Shown here: piece by piece, positions 30,278-64,000 of the stretch
Numbering within the stretch: position 1 is the first letter of the stretch
Layout of the letters: every line of letters begins with the position of its first letter
DNA from: Methanothermococcus sp. Ax23
GTDB lineage: Archaea > AGJL01 > Methanococci > Methanococcales > Methanococcaceae
NCBI RefSeq assembly: GCF_049075655.1
Contig: NZ_CP157522.1
Span: 1,216,001-1,280,000, forward strand
Length of the DNA: 64,000 nt
Direction: 5' to 3'
The notes under the pieces: model-generated
Told to the model about the DNA's origin: nothing
Databases searched by the model: none
Seen by the model: only the letters and a program-made list of their open reading frames with translations
Position numbers and translations under genes: made by a program

Positions 30278-31765
30278 TTACTCTTTTAAATCAAGTCCCA
30301 TTTTTTCTGCCAGTTTTACAATTATTTCATTATCTGGTATGGCATCTCCTGGAGCTCCTACTATCTTATTTATCTTTTGAGTCTTCCCCTCTGTATTTGT
30401 AAAGGTTCCATCCTTTTCAGCCCAGCATGATGCTGGAAGAACAACATTAGAAAGATTACATGTTTCATTCATTATTATACTTTGAGTAATCAAAAAATCA
30501 AGAGATTTTAATACATCCCCATTACACATTGCGGGATTTTCTCCCATTATGTATAAGCATTTAACATTTTTGATTAATTCAAGTAGTTCGTCCTTATTCA
30601 ATGGTGGAAGTAGTTTCATTGCACCCATTGTGTTGCAATGTTTTAAAACTGGAAGTAATTTACATTTTGTTTTTTCTGAGATACTATAAACCAAATCTAT
30701 ATCTTCTTGGTTTGTCAATTTATTAAATATTATTATGGAGTTCTCATCAAGTTTTTTTAGGATTTCTTCATCCATGTTCTTCAAAAATTCAGAGAAATTG
30801 TTTATTTTTATAAACTTATCAGAATTTAATCTAATAATGTCTTTTTCTTCATAATTTACAGAAACTATTTCAGCCCCATTTTCCTTTGCTTTAATTACCC
30901 TCCTTCCAATTAAAGAACTCTCCCCAAACACATCACTAAGAATTAAAATAAATTTGCTATTTTCAATATCATCAAAAGATGCTATACTCTTATCCAAATC
31001 AATTTTTGGAGAACCACATATGCAAACTCCAATGTTTTTTACGATAAACCGCCGAGAAAGCCAACGATTTTAATCGTTATACAAAACATAGTTTTGTAAA
31101 ATCTCTTACGAGATTGGATGAGAGGCGGACATTATAATTAGTCAGTAGTAAAACATAAATATTTGAAGTTTCATAGTGAATAATGCTACCAGTCCAAGTA
31201 TCTATGGGTAGGGTTAGTAAAAACTCTACCGCTGGTAGTGGTTGGAAGTGCATAGCGTAGCCCTGAACCCATTAATGGGTAGGGGTAGTGGGCTTGGCCA
31301 CCCTTGTAGGGTTAAACCCTGCTAAAATTAGACGAAATCACTTCGTGATTTCGTTGCTCGCTTACTACCGTAAGCGAGAACCCCACGACTTCAGTCGTGG
31401 GAGTAGGTCAGACCAAGTGCATCTGCAAATTTTTTCAAGGCGTAATTGTCTTCATTCGTGCATATTCCAGAACCTATAATACCAATTTCATCTGGTTTGT
31501 AGGACTTTAATTTATTAGATACCAAATTCAGTGCATCATCCCAGCTTGATTCAACAAATTTTCCATTTTTCTTTATTAATGGTGTCTTTAATCTCTTTTC
31601 ATCATTTACAATTTTATAACATTCTCTTCCATTGTTGCAGTTTTTTCCTTCATTTATGGGATGCCTCTTGTTTGGATAGGTTCCTATGACTTTTCCATCT
31701 TTTGTTATTAAATCTACTCCACAACCAACACTGCATCCGGGACATATCGTGTGCATAATCTTCAT
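30278..31765 (-). pseudogene. Short FdhA-like protein (ElpA/FlpA-like), interrupted by an IS605 MITE
   Basis: N-part [17 protein letters not shown] (31412-31765) plus C-part (30278-31042). Removing 31043-31411 restores ...ADALG|VKNIGVCICGSPKID... as a 372-aa ORF. Confidence 0.88.
31043..31411 (+). mobile_element. Non-autonomous IS200/IS605 MITE (369 bp)
   Basis: Inserted after TTTAC with no TSD. First ~90 bp match the left end at 62852; right-end hairpin CCCACGAC-TTCA-GTCGTGGG ends in GGTCAG; 31191-31233 matches tnpB 63467-63509 (36/43). Confidence 0.92.
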
Positions 31766-47311: not shown

Positions 47312-47408
47312 GTCATCGTTGCGTAGCAAGCGACCTAAAACCTACGGTTTTAAGTTTTACTCATTTCATTCGTAAATGCAACGAAATCACTTTGTGATTT
47401 CGTCTAAT
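47312..47408 (-). repeat. Nested double-hairpin micro-elements
   Basis: ATTAGACGAAATCAC..GTGATTTCGTTGC / TCGCTTGCTACGCAACG element interrupted by a 44-bp two-hairpin unit (47334-47377). Confidence 0.8.
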
Positions 47409-48827: not shown

Positions 48828-50090
48828 ATGAAAACTCTAATTATAGACCCCAAAATATCTGGAATATCTGGTGATATGTTTATATCTGCACTTATTGATT
48901 TAACCGATGATATTGATTTATTAGGGGAGCTCACCTCCACCATCAACAATTTGAAAAACTGCAAAAAATTTGAAGTAGATATTAAGGAAGAAAAAATAAA
49001 CGGTATAGTGGTAAAAAAGCTTTATATGAATATAATTGAAGATAGATTCCACCGCCCAGAAGATTTAAAAGATGCGATTAAGGAAGTTTCTAATAATTTA
49101 AATTTATCTGAAAAAGCAAATAATATAATCTGTAATATCATAGACGATTTAATATATGCCGAAAAAAAGCTCCATAAAACCGACTTCCACCTTCACGAAG
49201 TGGCATCCCTTGATACAGTTTTTGATGTTGTTGGAAGCGTAATGCTTCTTGAAAAAAACGGATTTTTGGACGGAAAAATATACTCCACGCCCCCAGTTCT
49301 TGGCGGTGGATATGTGAGTATGGAACACGGTATTTTATCAGTTCCAGCTCCTGCTACCCTTGAAATATTATGCAAACATGGTATAAAATACTCCAATCCA
49401 CCTTATGCCACCAAATTTGAACATACCACACCAACGGGCATTGCCATACTTTCCAATGTAGTTGATGAAATTGTGGATAACTTTCCCCCTATGACACCCA
49501 TAAAAGTTGGATATGGCGGAGGCTCAAAGATATTAAAAGAAGTTCCAAATATTTTAAGAGTTATTGAAGGAAAAATAAATAAAAACATAGAAAAAAACAT
49601 GGTTGTGCTTGAAACTAATGTGGATGATGTTTCTGGGGAGATTATAGGAAATCTTTTTGAAAAACTACTAAATGAAGGGGCAAAAGAAGTATTTGTTGTA
49701 AATGGTATCGGAAAGAAAAACCGACCCACCAATATTATTTCTGTAATCACAAATTATGCAAAATCTGAAAAACTTGCAAAAATGCTTATGGAAGAAACTG
49801 GAACATTAGGAGTAAGAATAAAAGAAATAGATAGAATAAAGGCAGAACGAATTGAAAAAACCTATTTTATTAATATAAATGGTAAAGAATTTAAATTTAA
49901 TGTGAAAATATCATCTATTGACGATAAAATAATAAATATGAAACCAGAATATGAAGACGCCAAAAAAATAGCAGAGGAGTTAAAAATACCCCTTAGAAAG
50001 GTTTTAAAGATGTTGGATAATGAAATCACCTGTGTAGCAGGTGAGCAACGAAATCATGAAGTGATTTCGTCTAATTTACGAGCGAAGTGA
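48828..50090 (+). CDS. larC: Nickel-pincer cofactor biosynthesis protein
   Basis: SGISGDM, HLHEV..LD..D, HG...VPAPAT, TPTG, ETNVDD, KKNRP, KPEYED. Confidence 0.9.
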   Translation: MKTLIIDPKISGISGDMFISALIDLTDDIDLLGELTSTINNLKNCKKFEVDIKEEKINGIVVKKLYMNIIEDRFHRPEDLKDAIKEVSNNLNLSEKANNIICNIIDDLIYAEKKLHKTDFHLHEVASLDTVFDVVGSVMLLEKNGFLDGKIYSTPPVLGGGYVSMEHGILSVPAPATLEILCKHGIKYSNPPYATKFEHTTPTGIAILSNVVDEIVDNFPPMTPIKVGYGGGSKILKEVPNILRVIEGKINKNIEKNMVVLETNVDDVSGEIIGNLFEKLLNEGAKEVFVVNGIGKKNRPTNIISVITNYAKSEKLAKMLMEETGTLGVRIKEIDRIKAERIEKTYFININGKEFKFNVKISSIDDKIINMKPEYEDAKKIAEELKIPLRKVLKMLDNEITCVAGEQRNHEVISSNLRAK

Positions 50091-59517: not shown

Positions 59518-60549
59518 ATGAATAAAATAAAAGATTTTTTAAATTATTTAAGTGAAAACAACATAAAGAAAGCCATAGTTTTAAAAAAGGAAAATATAAA
59601 TTATTTTTTAGAAAAATATCCCCCAACATTTTCGGTTTTAGTTTTTGATGCAGAGGAAGATAGGGCAGTTTTGAAAGTTCCAAAACTGGAATATAGGGGA
59701 GCTCTAACATATAAAAACAAATACCTTGATATCGAGTTGTTCGAAAAAATTGAAGAGGTATTTAAGGGATGCGATGGTGTTGAGGATTCCCTTCCTTTAA
59801 AATTTTTGAAATATCTTGATAAGAATTATAAACTAATATCCGACAAAATAAGAGAAATGCGAGCAATAAAAAACGATAGGGAAATCGAACTAATCCAAAA
59901 GGCATCTAAAATAAGCGATAAAGCAGTCGAGTATGCAACAGAGTTTATATTAAATTCAGATAAACCAATTACTGAAAATGAGCTCGCCGCAGAGATTGAG
60001 TATATTATGAAAAAAGAAGGTAGTATAAAACCATCCTTTGACACAATAGCAATTTCAGATAAAAAAACAGCACTACCTCACGGAGCTCCTTCTGATGCAG
60101 TAATTAAAAATATACTTCTGATGGATATTGGGGCAACTTATGAAGGTTATTGCTCAGATATTACAAGAACAGTTATTTTAAATCCAGATGAGAGATATAG
60201 GGATATATACAACATTGTTCATAATGCAAAAAATGAAGCAGAACAGTATCTTAAAGAAGGAATTTCAGTAAAGGAGCTCGACTCAATAGCAAGAAAATCC
60301 ATGGGCAAGTATGAAAAATATTTCATTCACTCCTTAGGTCATGGTGTTGGTGTAGAGGTTCATGAAGAACCATCAGTTTCTTCAAAGGTTAAGGAAGATA
60401 TTATTTTAAAAGAAGGTATGGTAATTACAATAGAACCAGGTATTTATTTAGACGATTTTGGAATAAGAATTGAAGATTTATATGTTGTTAAAAAGAATGG
60501 ATTTAAAAAATTGAGTAATGCAAAAATATTAGACGAAATCACTTTGTGA
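59518..60549 (+). CDS. pepQ: Xaa-Pro dipeptidase (M24)
   Basis: PH, DIG....GY.SDITRT, HSLGHGVG.EVHE, TIEPG, RIED. Confidence 0.9.
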   Translation: MNKIKDFLNYLSENNIKKAIVLKKENINYFLEKYPPTFSVLVFDAEEDRAVLKVPKLEYRGALTYKNKYLDIELFEKIEEVFKGCDGVEDSLPLKFLKYLDKNYKLISDKIREMRAIKNDREIELIQKASKISDKAVEYATEFILNSDKPITENELAAEIEYIMKKEGSIKPSFDTIAISDKKTALPHGAPSDAVIKNILLMDIGATYEGYCSDITRTVILNPDERYRDIYNIVHNAKNEAEQYLKEGISVKELDSIARKSMGKYEKYFIHSLGHGVGVEVHEEPSVSSKVKEDIILKEGMVITIEPGIYLDDFGIRIEDLYVVKKNGFKKLSNAKILDEITL

Positions 60550-60574
60550 TTTCGTTGCTCTTCGCTTCGCTCCG
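60528..60574 (+). repeat. Double-hairpin micro-element (ATTAGACG family)
   Basis: ATTAGACGAAATCACTTTGTGATTTCGTTGCTC...; supplies the pepQ stop. Confidence 0.8.
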
Positions 60575-61796: not shown

Positions 61797-62725
61797 TAGT
61801 GTGGGTCATATTACACTCTAACCTCTAATACCTTCATATAAGGATAACCTCTGGTAATGAGATTATATAGTGCTAAAACCTGTGCAGAAACTACTGCACA
61901 GAGACAGAATACTTTTTTACGAATATAACCTTTGATATTAATCCAAAACTTATTCATAAATCGGTTCTTTAATATTGAATTGGTGTGCTCTATTTTAACT
62001 CTTATCTTAGAAACTTCCGAAGGAAGTTTCTTTTTATTTTTCCTACCCAATCTCCGTGGATTATGTGCTGTTATTAGTTCATTTTTGTATAATTCTATCG
62101 CTTTTTTTTAAATCTTTTGAATCATAGCCTGCATCTGCACAGGACTTTTTGGTAGGTACTAATAATTTATCAGCTACTTTACAATCGTGAGTATTTGCTG
62201 TGGTAAATTCTGCTCTTAATGGTATTCCTAACTTATCTACTGCTAAATGTAATTTAAAGCCTTTAAACATTCCTACACTGTTATATCCTATCTTTCCCTC
62301 AATATCTGTTTCGTCTTTTATTGGAGTGCTATCGTATATTGACCATTCAGGATTATTTAGTTCAATATATTTATCACCTAATAAAGTAATTATTGCATGC
62401 AATTCTTCATCTAGGGATTTTTTCCATCTATCGATGGTTCTTCTACCAGGGCAGGATTTAAATCCTAATGCAGTTAAAATCTGTGGATTATTTTGTAAGT
62501 GTAATACTAACGCTCTATTTGAATGTATGCCTTTTAAAAAGGCATACACTAATAGTTTAAGCCTCAACTCTAAATTATATCCTTTTCTCCCTACCTTTCT
62601 TCGTTTAGGGATTCGGTCAATTAAATCTGATGTAATTATCTCATTTACCACTTCCTCAGCCTTCATATTATCGTCTTTTTTATAATATTATATTTAGTAT
62701 AGGTTATATATTTTGACCCATACTA
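61797..62725 (-). mobile_element. DDE insertion sequence (DUF772 + DDE_Tnp_1 type), 929 bp, with long direct repeats
   Basis: TIR TAGT(G/A)TGGGTCA; identical 31-bp flanking direct repeats at 61766-61796 and 62726-62756. Confidence 0.92.
61811..62666 (-). pseudogene. Transposase split by a frameshift at an A8 run
   Basis: DSTP, GFKLHL, HD, ADAGYDS in the first ORF; R..IEH in the second; removing one A at 62102-62109 joins them. Confidence 0.85.
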
Positions 62726-62851
62726 ATAATTATATCATAACATATTTAATATTAATCTTTTATTTTATTTAGAGTTAATAATTTAAATAATTTAAACATT
62801 ATACGAGATTTAATATAAAAGAAAATGATGAATATATAAAAAGAATTTTAC

Positions 62852-64000
62852 GATAAACCGCCGGGAAAGCCAACGACTTCAGTCGTTATACAAAACATAG
62901 TTTTGTAAAATCTCTTACGAGATTGGATGAGAGGCGGACATTCTATATTCCACACAATCAAAAATTATCTGTAATTGAATATATAAACTATATTTATAAG
63001 AACTATGGTGAATTCCATGCAAGTAACCAGAGTGCTGACAATAAACCTAACCAGAAGTTTAAATAATGAACAATTAACAATCATAAACCATTTAACCTAC
63101 TCAGCATCAAAACTCTGGAATACATCCAATTATGAAGTAATACTACAAAACATTGAACCAAATAAAATAGATGTTCAAATGAAGGATAACTTCTGGTTTA
63201 AAAACCTACACTCACAATCAGCACAGGCAGTATGTCAAAAACTCTCAATTAGACGAAAACCTTCGGTTTTCGTTGCTCGCTTGCTACGCAAGCGATAGCA
63301 TGGCAAAACTACTTCAAACAGCACACTAAAAGACCACGATACCAACCAAAAGATGGACACTTTCCAGTAAAATGGAAGAAACAAGGTTTCAAAATCATAG
63401 GCAATAAGTTAAGGTTATCCCTATCAAAACAAACTAAAAACTATCTCAAAGAAAAGCATGTTATCAAGTCCAAGTACTTATGGGTAGATTTATCGAAAAC
63501 TCTACCGCTTGATACCACGCAGGTTAAAGAAGTTGAGATAGTTCCGCAGACCATCTATGGGATAACCTACCACATACTTCACTTAATCCATAAGAAACCA
63601 GTAATTCAAGAACCTATCAAAGAAGGTAATATACTAAGTATTGATTTAGGAATTAAGAATTTAGCAACCACAGTAACTAACACGGGCATCAGGCGAAAAC
63701 CTTCGGTTTTCGCTACTCACCAACATCAGTTGGTGAAAGCAGTAATCTATGATGGAAGAAGGTTAATTTCTAAATTCCGATGGTTTGCTAAAAGTAAAGG
63801 AAAAATCCAATCTACCCTAACAAAGCAAGAGTTAAAATATAATAAACGATTATCCCGCTTAACAGTAAGGGAAAAGAATTATACTAAGGATTATCTACAT
63901 AAAATAAGTAAAATGATTATCGATTTTGCAGTGGAAAATAAAGTTTCAAGGATTGTAATCGGCGAGTTAAACAAAGGTATTTCAAATATTAATATTGGTA
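62852..64000 (+). mobile_element. IS200/IS605 family tnpB-only (IS1341-type) element, runs off the window
   Basis: Left end after TTTAC with a subterminal hairpin; tnpB follows directly with no tnpA. Confidence 0.9.
63005..64000 (+). pseudogene. tnpB: TnpB RNA-guided nuclease, frameshifted by a 47-bp insertion
   Basis: KLWNT.NY, LHSQSAQ, RuvC-I SIDLGIKN, DYLHK.S, RuvC-II IVIGEL; insertions at 63248-63294 (frameshift) and 63688-63735 (in frame). Confidence 0.9.

Follow-up and report, generated by a model that had tools for sequence, protein, structure and literature searches.

The stretch analysed here, called the window, comprises 64,000 nt of Methanothermococcus sp. Ax23 (G000:C1:1216001-1280000), whose genome consists of 1.66 Mb plus a 7.7-kb contig with 31.9% G+C and a completeness of 98.9%. 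The end of the window is occupied by the left part of an IS200/IS605-type insertion sequence (IS) of about 1.5 kb that carries only tnpB (62851..64000, plus strand, delimited by IS alignment) and extends beyond the window end. Within this tnpB lie two short double-hairpin segments, e1 and e2, which belong to a family of micro-elements of mostly 45-50 nt. Comparison of filled and empty sites shows that these elements move as discrete units and insert precisely.

The tnpB gene is read on the plus strand in three segments. Segment 1 (63017..63247) ends in QKLS, segment 2 (63295..63687) runs from IAWQNYF to TNTG in a different frame owing to e1, and segment 3 (63736..64000) begins with KAVIYDG, keeps the frame of segment 2 and is cut by the window end. 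The 47-nt e1 (63248..63294, plus strand) lies in sense orientation between two codons and disrupts the reading frame; its removal joins CAA AAA CTC TCA to ATA GCA TGG and restores QKLS-IAWQNYF. The 48-nt e2 (63688..63735, plus strand, 60.6 bits) adds 16 stop-free codons in frame just after an IDLGIKN motif, and its removal joins ACG GGC to AAA GCA GTA and restores TNTG-KAVIYDG. Excision of each thus restores the protein reading, as an earlier interpretation made from the sequence alone (the sequence-only reading) had proposed for two insertions interrupting tnpB. Folded as DNA, both form two hairpins, at -15.9 kcal/mol for e1 (z -5.4) and -16.2 kcal/mol for e2 (z -9.0), with 0/200 shuffles as good in either case.

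Related copies lie elsewhere in the window. A 50-nt element, e3 (31327..31376, plus strand), occupies the right-end region, presumed to encode the omega-RNA, of an internally deleted derivative of the same IS that resembles a miniature inverted-repeat transposable element (MITE); this derivative spans about 375 bp (31037..31411, plus strand) and was delimited by blastn of the IS against the genome together with a right-end regular expression. A solo 49-nt copy is intergenic (50027..50075, minus strand, 63.2 bits). Two further loci depart from the short form: 60528..60574 (plus strand, 39.2 bits) is a variant with hairpin 1 only, whose 3' half of the CTTCGCTTCGCTCCG type does not fold, and 47312..47408 (minus strand) is a 97-nt long form in which ATTAG and hairpin 1 are followed by two additional modules (an AAAACC-GTA-GGTTTT hairpin among them) and by an end that resembles hairpin 2. 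The covariance model R1, built on 14 distinct copies and run with filters off, recovers six loci in the window (63248-63294, 31327-31376, 50027-50075 on the minus strand, 63688-63735, 60528-60564, and 47362-47408 on the minus strand) and nothing else above 20 bits. All the related copies listed by the sequence-only reading were therefore found, with the corrections that 60528-60574 has hairpin 1 only and that 47312-47408 is one four-module form, not two copies. The 19-nt core of hairpin 1 occurs exactly twice on the plus strand, against 0.01 expected. In the whole genome, nhmmer with five seeds gave 79 matches (51 at E <= 0.001) and R1 gave 66 matches at E <= 0.01. An Rfam scan of the window returned no family at gathering scores.

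The elements share a common layout: ATYAG at the 5' end is followed by a hairpin of 9-10 bp, and a linker resembling TTGCT leads to the closing hairpin of 6-7 bp. They begin with ATTAG and end with GCAAGCG, and their hairpins are subterminal, without terminal inverted repeats. The short form measures 45-50 nt, and the 97-nt long form also occurs outside the window. Across the 14 distinct copies, 96.7% of the stem cells are paired, compared with 29-47% when the 3' partners are slid, and both sides change in 7/13 pairs, a level matched by 0/500 shuffles. The proposal that structure is conserved through compensatory changes is thus borne out. G-U intermediates are nearly absent (one cell in 14 sequences), which is weak evidence that it is DNA, and not a single RNA strand, on which the hairpins are needed. 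The genome also holds a wider set of hairpin modules, namely AAAACC-NNN-GGTTTT hairpins and 5-bp stems with a TTCGCTTCGCTC loop, which are combined in arrays and in four-module elements of about 100 nt (e.g., C1:365009-365200, 560216, 1457813, 1587570, and window 47312-47408). Within this set, the 47-50-nt form appears to be the minimal version, with two modules.

Most copies of the family in the genome are passengers of the tnpB IS, of which there are 10 full-length copies (C1:130470-1505821) and about 27 internally deleted MITE-like derivatives. An intact tnpB paralog matches the Pfam families OrfB_IS605 and Cas12f1-like_TNB; TTAC borders the left end in 9/9 aligned copies (window 62847-62850), and the right end reads ...GAGTAGGTCAG. 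At site 1 of the full-length copies, the identical e1 47-mer stands at the same position in seven, and two have no insert; the remaining, diverged copy carries e1b, a 45-nt relative placed 27 nt beyond site 1, and keeps an open frame of 426 aa. Site 2 holds e2 in 3/10 copies and is empty in 7/10. The right end, presumed to be the guide-RNA region, has the e3 50-mer between two of its stems; 22/37 right ends are filled and 15/37 are empty (one extra truncated right-end copy at genome position 1141808 lies outside the 37). Four right-end flank haplotypes each occur both filled and empty. The suggestion that the elements inactivated TnpB holds for e1, which breaks the frame in 7/7 carriers and leaves raw open reading frames (ORFs) of 93-117 aa; it fails for e2, which is in frame and free of stops and inactivates nothing by itself, as is the case for three other inserts in tnpB relatives. 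Contigs from vent metagenomes contain e1, e2, e3, and e1b in tnpB relatives, plus 48-nt inserts at two new sites, both in frame and one antisense. A TnpB protein search added only confirmation of the TnpB annotation in distant relatives. Micro-elements were also seen just outside two other, distantly related tnpB genes (34-37% identical), at L075 (G000:C1:585907-585953) and L071 (1424309-1424358); the former lies about 80 nt downstream of the tnpB 3' end, in what would be the guide-RNA region.

The same units are found in unrelated contexts. An rve-type transposase gene of G039, present in two IS copies, contains the exact e1 47-mer (74.5 bits) at two of its sites, and the rve gene of G028 has it once; the two genomes represent two other genera of the order, and the same 47 letters are thus present in three genera. 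In G038, a 47-mer stands at one site of an ISC1217-like IS, identical in copies whose flanks are 87% alike, while no insert is present in sister copies whose flanks are 99.8% identical; the 47-mer recurs unchanged in an unrelated context where only 53 nt are shared. Host genes also provide empty orthologs. The 48-mer in a thiamine pyrophosphate (TPP)-enzyme ORF at G000 position 66266 is absent in 3/3 aligned relatives with an exact join, and where an IF-2B-family gene of G002 contains an antisense 48-mer, its ortholog in G000 (275/336 residues identical) shows a clean gap of 16 aa. About 30 further solo copies in G000 each have their own sequence and are mostly intergenic. The copy at 50027 also stands at the orthologous place in the relative G009, with stem-breaking changes, and there is a contrast in age in that the IS-borne variants are identical to one another and the solo copies are old. 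The empty alleles sought as a check on the sequence-only reading exist both among paralogs and in orthologs of relatives, and together with identical 47-mers in unrelated genes of other genera they support its view of discrete, precisely inserting elements.

A different reading, in which tnpB and its guide RNA originally included the segments as native modules and some copies lost them by deletion, is extremely improbable in light of these copies. It can draw on the position of the right-end copy between two stems of the presumed guide-RNA scaffold and on intact tnpB frames with such segments in frame. The sequence-only reading had expected intact tnpB homologs to be free of them, which is right for the more distant TnpB relatives, where none of the segments occurs, and wrong for some intact frames. 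However, the same 47 letters are present in unrelated rve genes and genomes, a host-gene copy is absent in all three orthologs, and the solo copies lie in intergenic DNA.

The covariance search was extended to related genomes as the sequence-only reading had suggested, and matches at E <= 1e-4 occur in 20/40 genomes of the order, with all seven genomes of one genus lacking any; in the genus of strain Ax23, matches are found in 5/13 genomes. A pattern scan of genome contigs returned 26 stretches, 22 of which are chance matches in unrelated bacteria and archaea. The remaining four belong to Methanococcales (two Methanothermococcus sp., one Methanocaldococcus sp., and one Methanocaldococcaceae). 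The plasmid collection contained no match to e1.

The insertion sites share a short target preference. The base after the element (+1) is A in 16/16 distinct sites (background 0.34), and C occupies position +5 in 11/16 (background 0.16), often as A-W-W-R-C. The 3' flank repeats the first letters of the element itself (ATTAG) for 1-6 nt. Read on the other strand, the element ends in CTAAT and is inserted 3' of a G-Y-W-W-T-like motif, a target logic that resembles that of IS200/IS605 and repetitive extragenic palindromic (REP) elements. No fixed duplication is seen at filled/empty pairs, in agreement with the claim that target duplication is lacking, and the preference for A at +1 and C at +5 comes in addition. 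Insertions occur in either orientation in intergenic DNA, transposase genes, and occasional host genes. A bias of strand relative to replication was considered and dropped, as the cumulative GC skew is shapeless and the order apparent in the 11 best solo copies is not seen in the weaker ones.

Copy length differs with location. All five mid-gene copies in host ORFs are multiples of three (48, 48, 45, 57, and 45 nt), and two of them are verified by empty orthologs. The other three are assigned from ORFs only: the 45-nt copy in a 583-aa ORF of G002, for which there is no ortholog in G000; the G000 ORF at 281383, with no ortholog in five relatives; and site 1536605, for which no clean empty allele was found. 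Nine clear intergenic copies measure 47-49 nt, and 3/9 are multiples of three. Copies of 46-47 nt are located in transposase genes (tnpB, rve at three sites, IS5-like, and ISC1217-like) or near a C-terminus.

These observations are probably best explained by non-autonomous, selfish micro-elements of 45-50 nt that combine mobility as a unit, precise insertion before A, a filter by selection, and a young e1 block spread by IS proliferation and recombination. The elements insert before A, in either orientation and without fixed duplication. Selection would then act as a filter: in host genes only frame-preserving, stop-free copies would survive, as short peptide inserts, and frame-breaking copies could persist in IS genes at no loss to the host. 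The e1 block probably reached 7/10 tnpB copies as the IS proliferated and its copies recombined with one another.

Several observations weigh against this explanation. When the elements are excised in silico, all nine close tnpB copies, including 7/7 e1 carriers, give proteins of 404-405 aa. The pairwise ratio of non-synonymous to synonymous substitution rates (dN/dS) is 0.11-0.24 in all 36 pairs, and the changes private to single e1 carriers number 15 synonymous and 12 non-synonymous, compared with a site ratio of about 1 to 3.9 under neutrality (p = 7e-5). Filled and empty alleles differ by 1-3 substitutions within a few bases of the junction, such as AAA versus AGT after e2 (window 63736-63741), G versus A before the G038 insert, and two versions of the 5' flank at tnpB site 1. 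The same insert in two G038 subfamilies would require a conversion tract of at most about 67 nt, and site-directed re-insertion (homing) could also account for the G038 inserts. With regard to the enzyme, the Y1/HUH family (PF01797) has no match in G000, and the intact Y1 genes known from the order represent the autonomous tnpA+tnpB form of the tnpB IS, whose hairpins differ from those of the micro-element and whose target is TTAC. Furthermore, the two hairpins of one micro-element are unlike each other, and IS200/IS605 ends usually carry similar hairpins.

The intact coding signal would be expected if the 47-nt elements were cut from the transcript in the manner of introns or bypassed by the ribosome by means of their own double hairpin, with tnpB and rve still making protein at a low level. 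An rve gene of G039 with two copies of e1 is likewise intact (318 aa) after their removal in silico. Translational bypass elements include the T4 gene 60 gap and the byp elements of Magnusiomyces mitochondria, which are inserts of 47-50 nt that form hairpins and break the frame of genes that are intact in other respects. Nevertheless, such a rescue is very unlikely here. By inspection, no bulge-helix-bulge of the archaeal intron type is possible at the boundaries; the four exon bases at -6 to -3, which would need to pair with the 3' part of the element, are unable to do so and are different at each site, and copies in coding DNA occur in both orientations, antisense included. The e1 element enters tnpB in phase 0 and rve in phase 1, where its TAG is an in-frame stop, and with two different entry phases no single rule for a frameshift or hop would work for both genes. 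Only one tnpB allele has matching take-off and landing codons (ATT...ATT); the other has ATT...ATA and the rve sites show no match, and nothing here points to bypass. Host genes accept mid-gene only copies that are multiples of three, which would be needless if the elements were removed, and the G028 rve copy has decayed although its e1 is intact. A -1 frameshift (GGTTTTC, a 6-nt spacer, and hairpin 2), the bulge-helix-bulge and the ribosome hop were each dropped as specific candidates because the entry phase differs between sites. If a rescue of this type were true, these would be the smallest intron-like or bypass elements known in archaea.

RNA contigs were also inspected for joints across the elements. 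Joints over 63688-63739 carry the letters of the empty paralogs and are also present in a run of unrecorded kind (X15), and they are therefore not the product of splicing. A joint at 63243-63298 comes from one RNA-library contig (run X1) with 23 letters on the shorter side, below the reliable level. Its letters are those expected if an allele found only in the filled state in G000 lacked the element, and it is indistinguishable from an empty copy in another strain.

Recombination among the tnpB copies probably accounts for the coding signal without any rescue. In a four-gamete test on the tnpB paralogs, 10,411/19,900 informative site pairs fail (52%), and the copy in the window is the same as two others over about 600 columns around e1 and elsewhere is nearest to different copies. 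The paralogs are demonstrably extensive recombinant mosaics. Since they are, the divergence of the carriers is shuffled old variation and the e1 block itself is young; the carriers probably lack other damage because of this mosaicism and the youth of the insertion, and not because the element leaves the RNA. We think that the dN/dS values and the pattern of private changes have the same origin, and they would equally fit genes that still work.

The uniformity of e1 raises another explanation, namely a homing-like spread in which the element is copied into the same site of empty IS paralogs through a break or by targeted re-insertion. Among the seven copies of e1, 0/47 columns are variable, whereas 1041 other windows of 47 columns have a mean of 6.9 variable columns and a minimum of 1. 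Fully identical elements are placed at the same nucleotide in diverged paralogs, both at tnpB site 1 with its two versions of the 5' flank and in the G038 subfamilies with flanks 87% alike, and the right-end haplotypes that are both filled and empty fit such a process as well. The windows beside e1 are also poor in variation (2-4 sites), however, and tnpB mosaicism explains the pattern without a special mechanism. The three targets of e1 (tnpB, rve A, and rve B) share only the A at +1, which leaves no obvious basis for sequence-specific homing. In both G038 subfamilies, the G at -1 accompanies the insert, which looks like co-conversion. We therefore regard homing as unlikely and retain ordinary insertion followed by IS proliferation and recombination.

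The enzyme that moves these selfish micro-elements is a separate matter. We infer that their hairpins are recognised on DNA by an enzyme acting in trans. Subterminal hairpins, the lack of duplication, and insertion beside a short motif like the element's own end make the single-strand "peel and paste" enzymes of IS200/IS605 or REP-associated tyrosine transposase (RAYT) type the best fit to the geometry. This assignment is tentative and rather doubtful because no such gene exists in G000. The sequence-only reading had suggested possible mobilisation by an HUH/Y1 enzyme and a search for a co-occurring TnpA/RAYT-like gene; the geometry fits the former, but the genome has neither a PF01797 match nor a gene of the latter kind, and the intact Y1 genes of the order belong to the host IS. 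PF01797 is found in 6/40 genomes of the order, and three intact genes adjoin tnpB of the same IS family, each as a 144-aa TnpA directly upstream of tnpB (L160 in G026, L161 in G019, and L162 in G038). The end hairpins of this IS (ACGAC-TTCA-GTCGT type) are unlike either hairpin of the micro-element, and in G038 a micro-element is inserted into the left end of the autonomous IS. The enzyme may have been lost, or it may be supplied by a plasmid, a virus, or another strain. In G000 itself, there are 37 right ends of the tnpB IS yet no TnpA.

An IS607-type serine recombinase is present in G000 and was rejected as a candidate, as the junctions share no fixed dinucleotide. Two IS607-type units were seen, L095 (G000:C1:45398-48796) and L096. 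In L095, a 209-aa serine recombinase with MerR-like and resolvase parts overlaps a 438-aa putative TnpB-like frame; the resolvase of L096 holds an in-frame TAG.

Palindromic repeats with coding potential, fused into protein genes, have been described in Methanocaldococcus jannaschii (Suyama, Lathe & Bork, FEBS Lett 2005, as cited in PMC2229807 and PMC2996958). As far as those citing papers describe them, both families are short, hairpin-forming interspersed repeats of Methanococcales with a few copies in frame inside protein genes, and the link drawn by the sequence-only reading is thus a real lead. The family studied here is most likely a member or close sister of the M. jannaschii repeats, judged by behaviour and lineage rather than by comparison of sequences. 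The M. jannaschii repeats reportedly bear the names MJRE1-3 and comprise 141 elements totalling 14.3 kb, with a mean length near 100 nt, and the 2005 account is said to describe no insertions in tnpB, in a guide-RNA region, or in other transposases, no exact filled and empty alleles, and no target motif. In a comparison by description, that reported size of about 100 nt fits the 97-nt long form better than the 45-50-nt form.

The Rickettsia palindromic elements (RPE) provide a bacterial counterpart, as selfish palindromic DNA tolerated in frame in unrelated housekeeping genes (Ogata et al., Science 2000, as cited in PMC10969869 and PMC2996958). On the terms given in those citing papers, the likeness lies in in-frame palindromic inserts in unrelated host genes, here the TPP-enzyme ORF and the IF-2B-family gene. 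RPEs measure about 100-150 bp, are bacterial (Rickettsiales), and form unrelated sequence families, in contrast to archaeal elements of 45-50 nt that are mostly intergenic or in IS genes, and the relation is one of resemblance in behaviour, not membership. With the palindrome-associated elements (PATE) of IS200/IS605 and with REP/REPIN-RAYT systems, the micro-elements share subterminal hairpins, no terminal inverted repeats, no duplication, and insertion beside a motif like their own end. They differ from these in that G000 has no Y1 HUH or RAYT gene and in that their hairpins are unlike the ends of the resident IS or of its tnpA-bearing form. The terminal inverted repeats and fixed duplication of classical DDE-type MITEs are not present.

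The micro-elements therefore do not form a new category. They are selfish palindromic micro-elements of Methanococcales, and a related methanogen had already yielded palindromic repeats with coding potential in 2005; to count them among the smallest mobile units is fair, the kind itself being already known. A literature search, with subscription papers outside it, found no printed account of such elements in tnpB. As far as that search reaches, neither a minimal form of 45-50 nt with exact empty alleles nor the target preference is in print, and the same holds for the identical copies in three genera and for the heavy traffic into other mobile elements, which covers tnpB at six sites, its guide-RNA end, and the rve, IS5-like, and ISC1217-like transposases.

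The exact filled and empty alleles show that archaeal DNA units of less than 50 nt can be mobile. Other mobile elements receive much of the traffic, which has reached at least four families of transposases as well as the guide-RNA end of a TnpB element. The target preference and the anatomy give a handle for seeking the mobilising enzyme. Natural inserts of 15-16 residues tolerated in TnpB, together with a 50-nt insert in the presumed guide-RNA scaffold, may be of interest for TnpB engineering.

Two further observations concern the surroundings. The second contig of 7.7 kb (L115, G000:C2:1-7732) has a large helicase-like frame running across the contig ends and contains neither a micro-element nor an HUH gene. 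Directly upstream of the tnpB IS, at 61811-62666 on the minus strand of the window, lies an IS5-like DDE transposase (DDE_Tnp_1, DUF772) split into two frames of 79 and 195 aa. The homolog of this gene in the relative G009 carries a 46-nt micro-element (L047).

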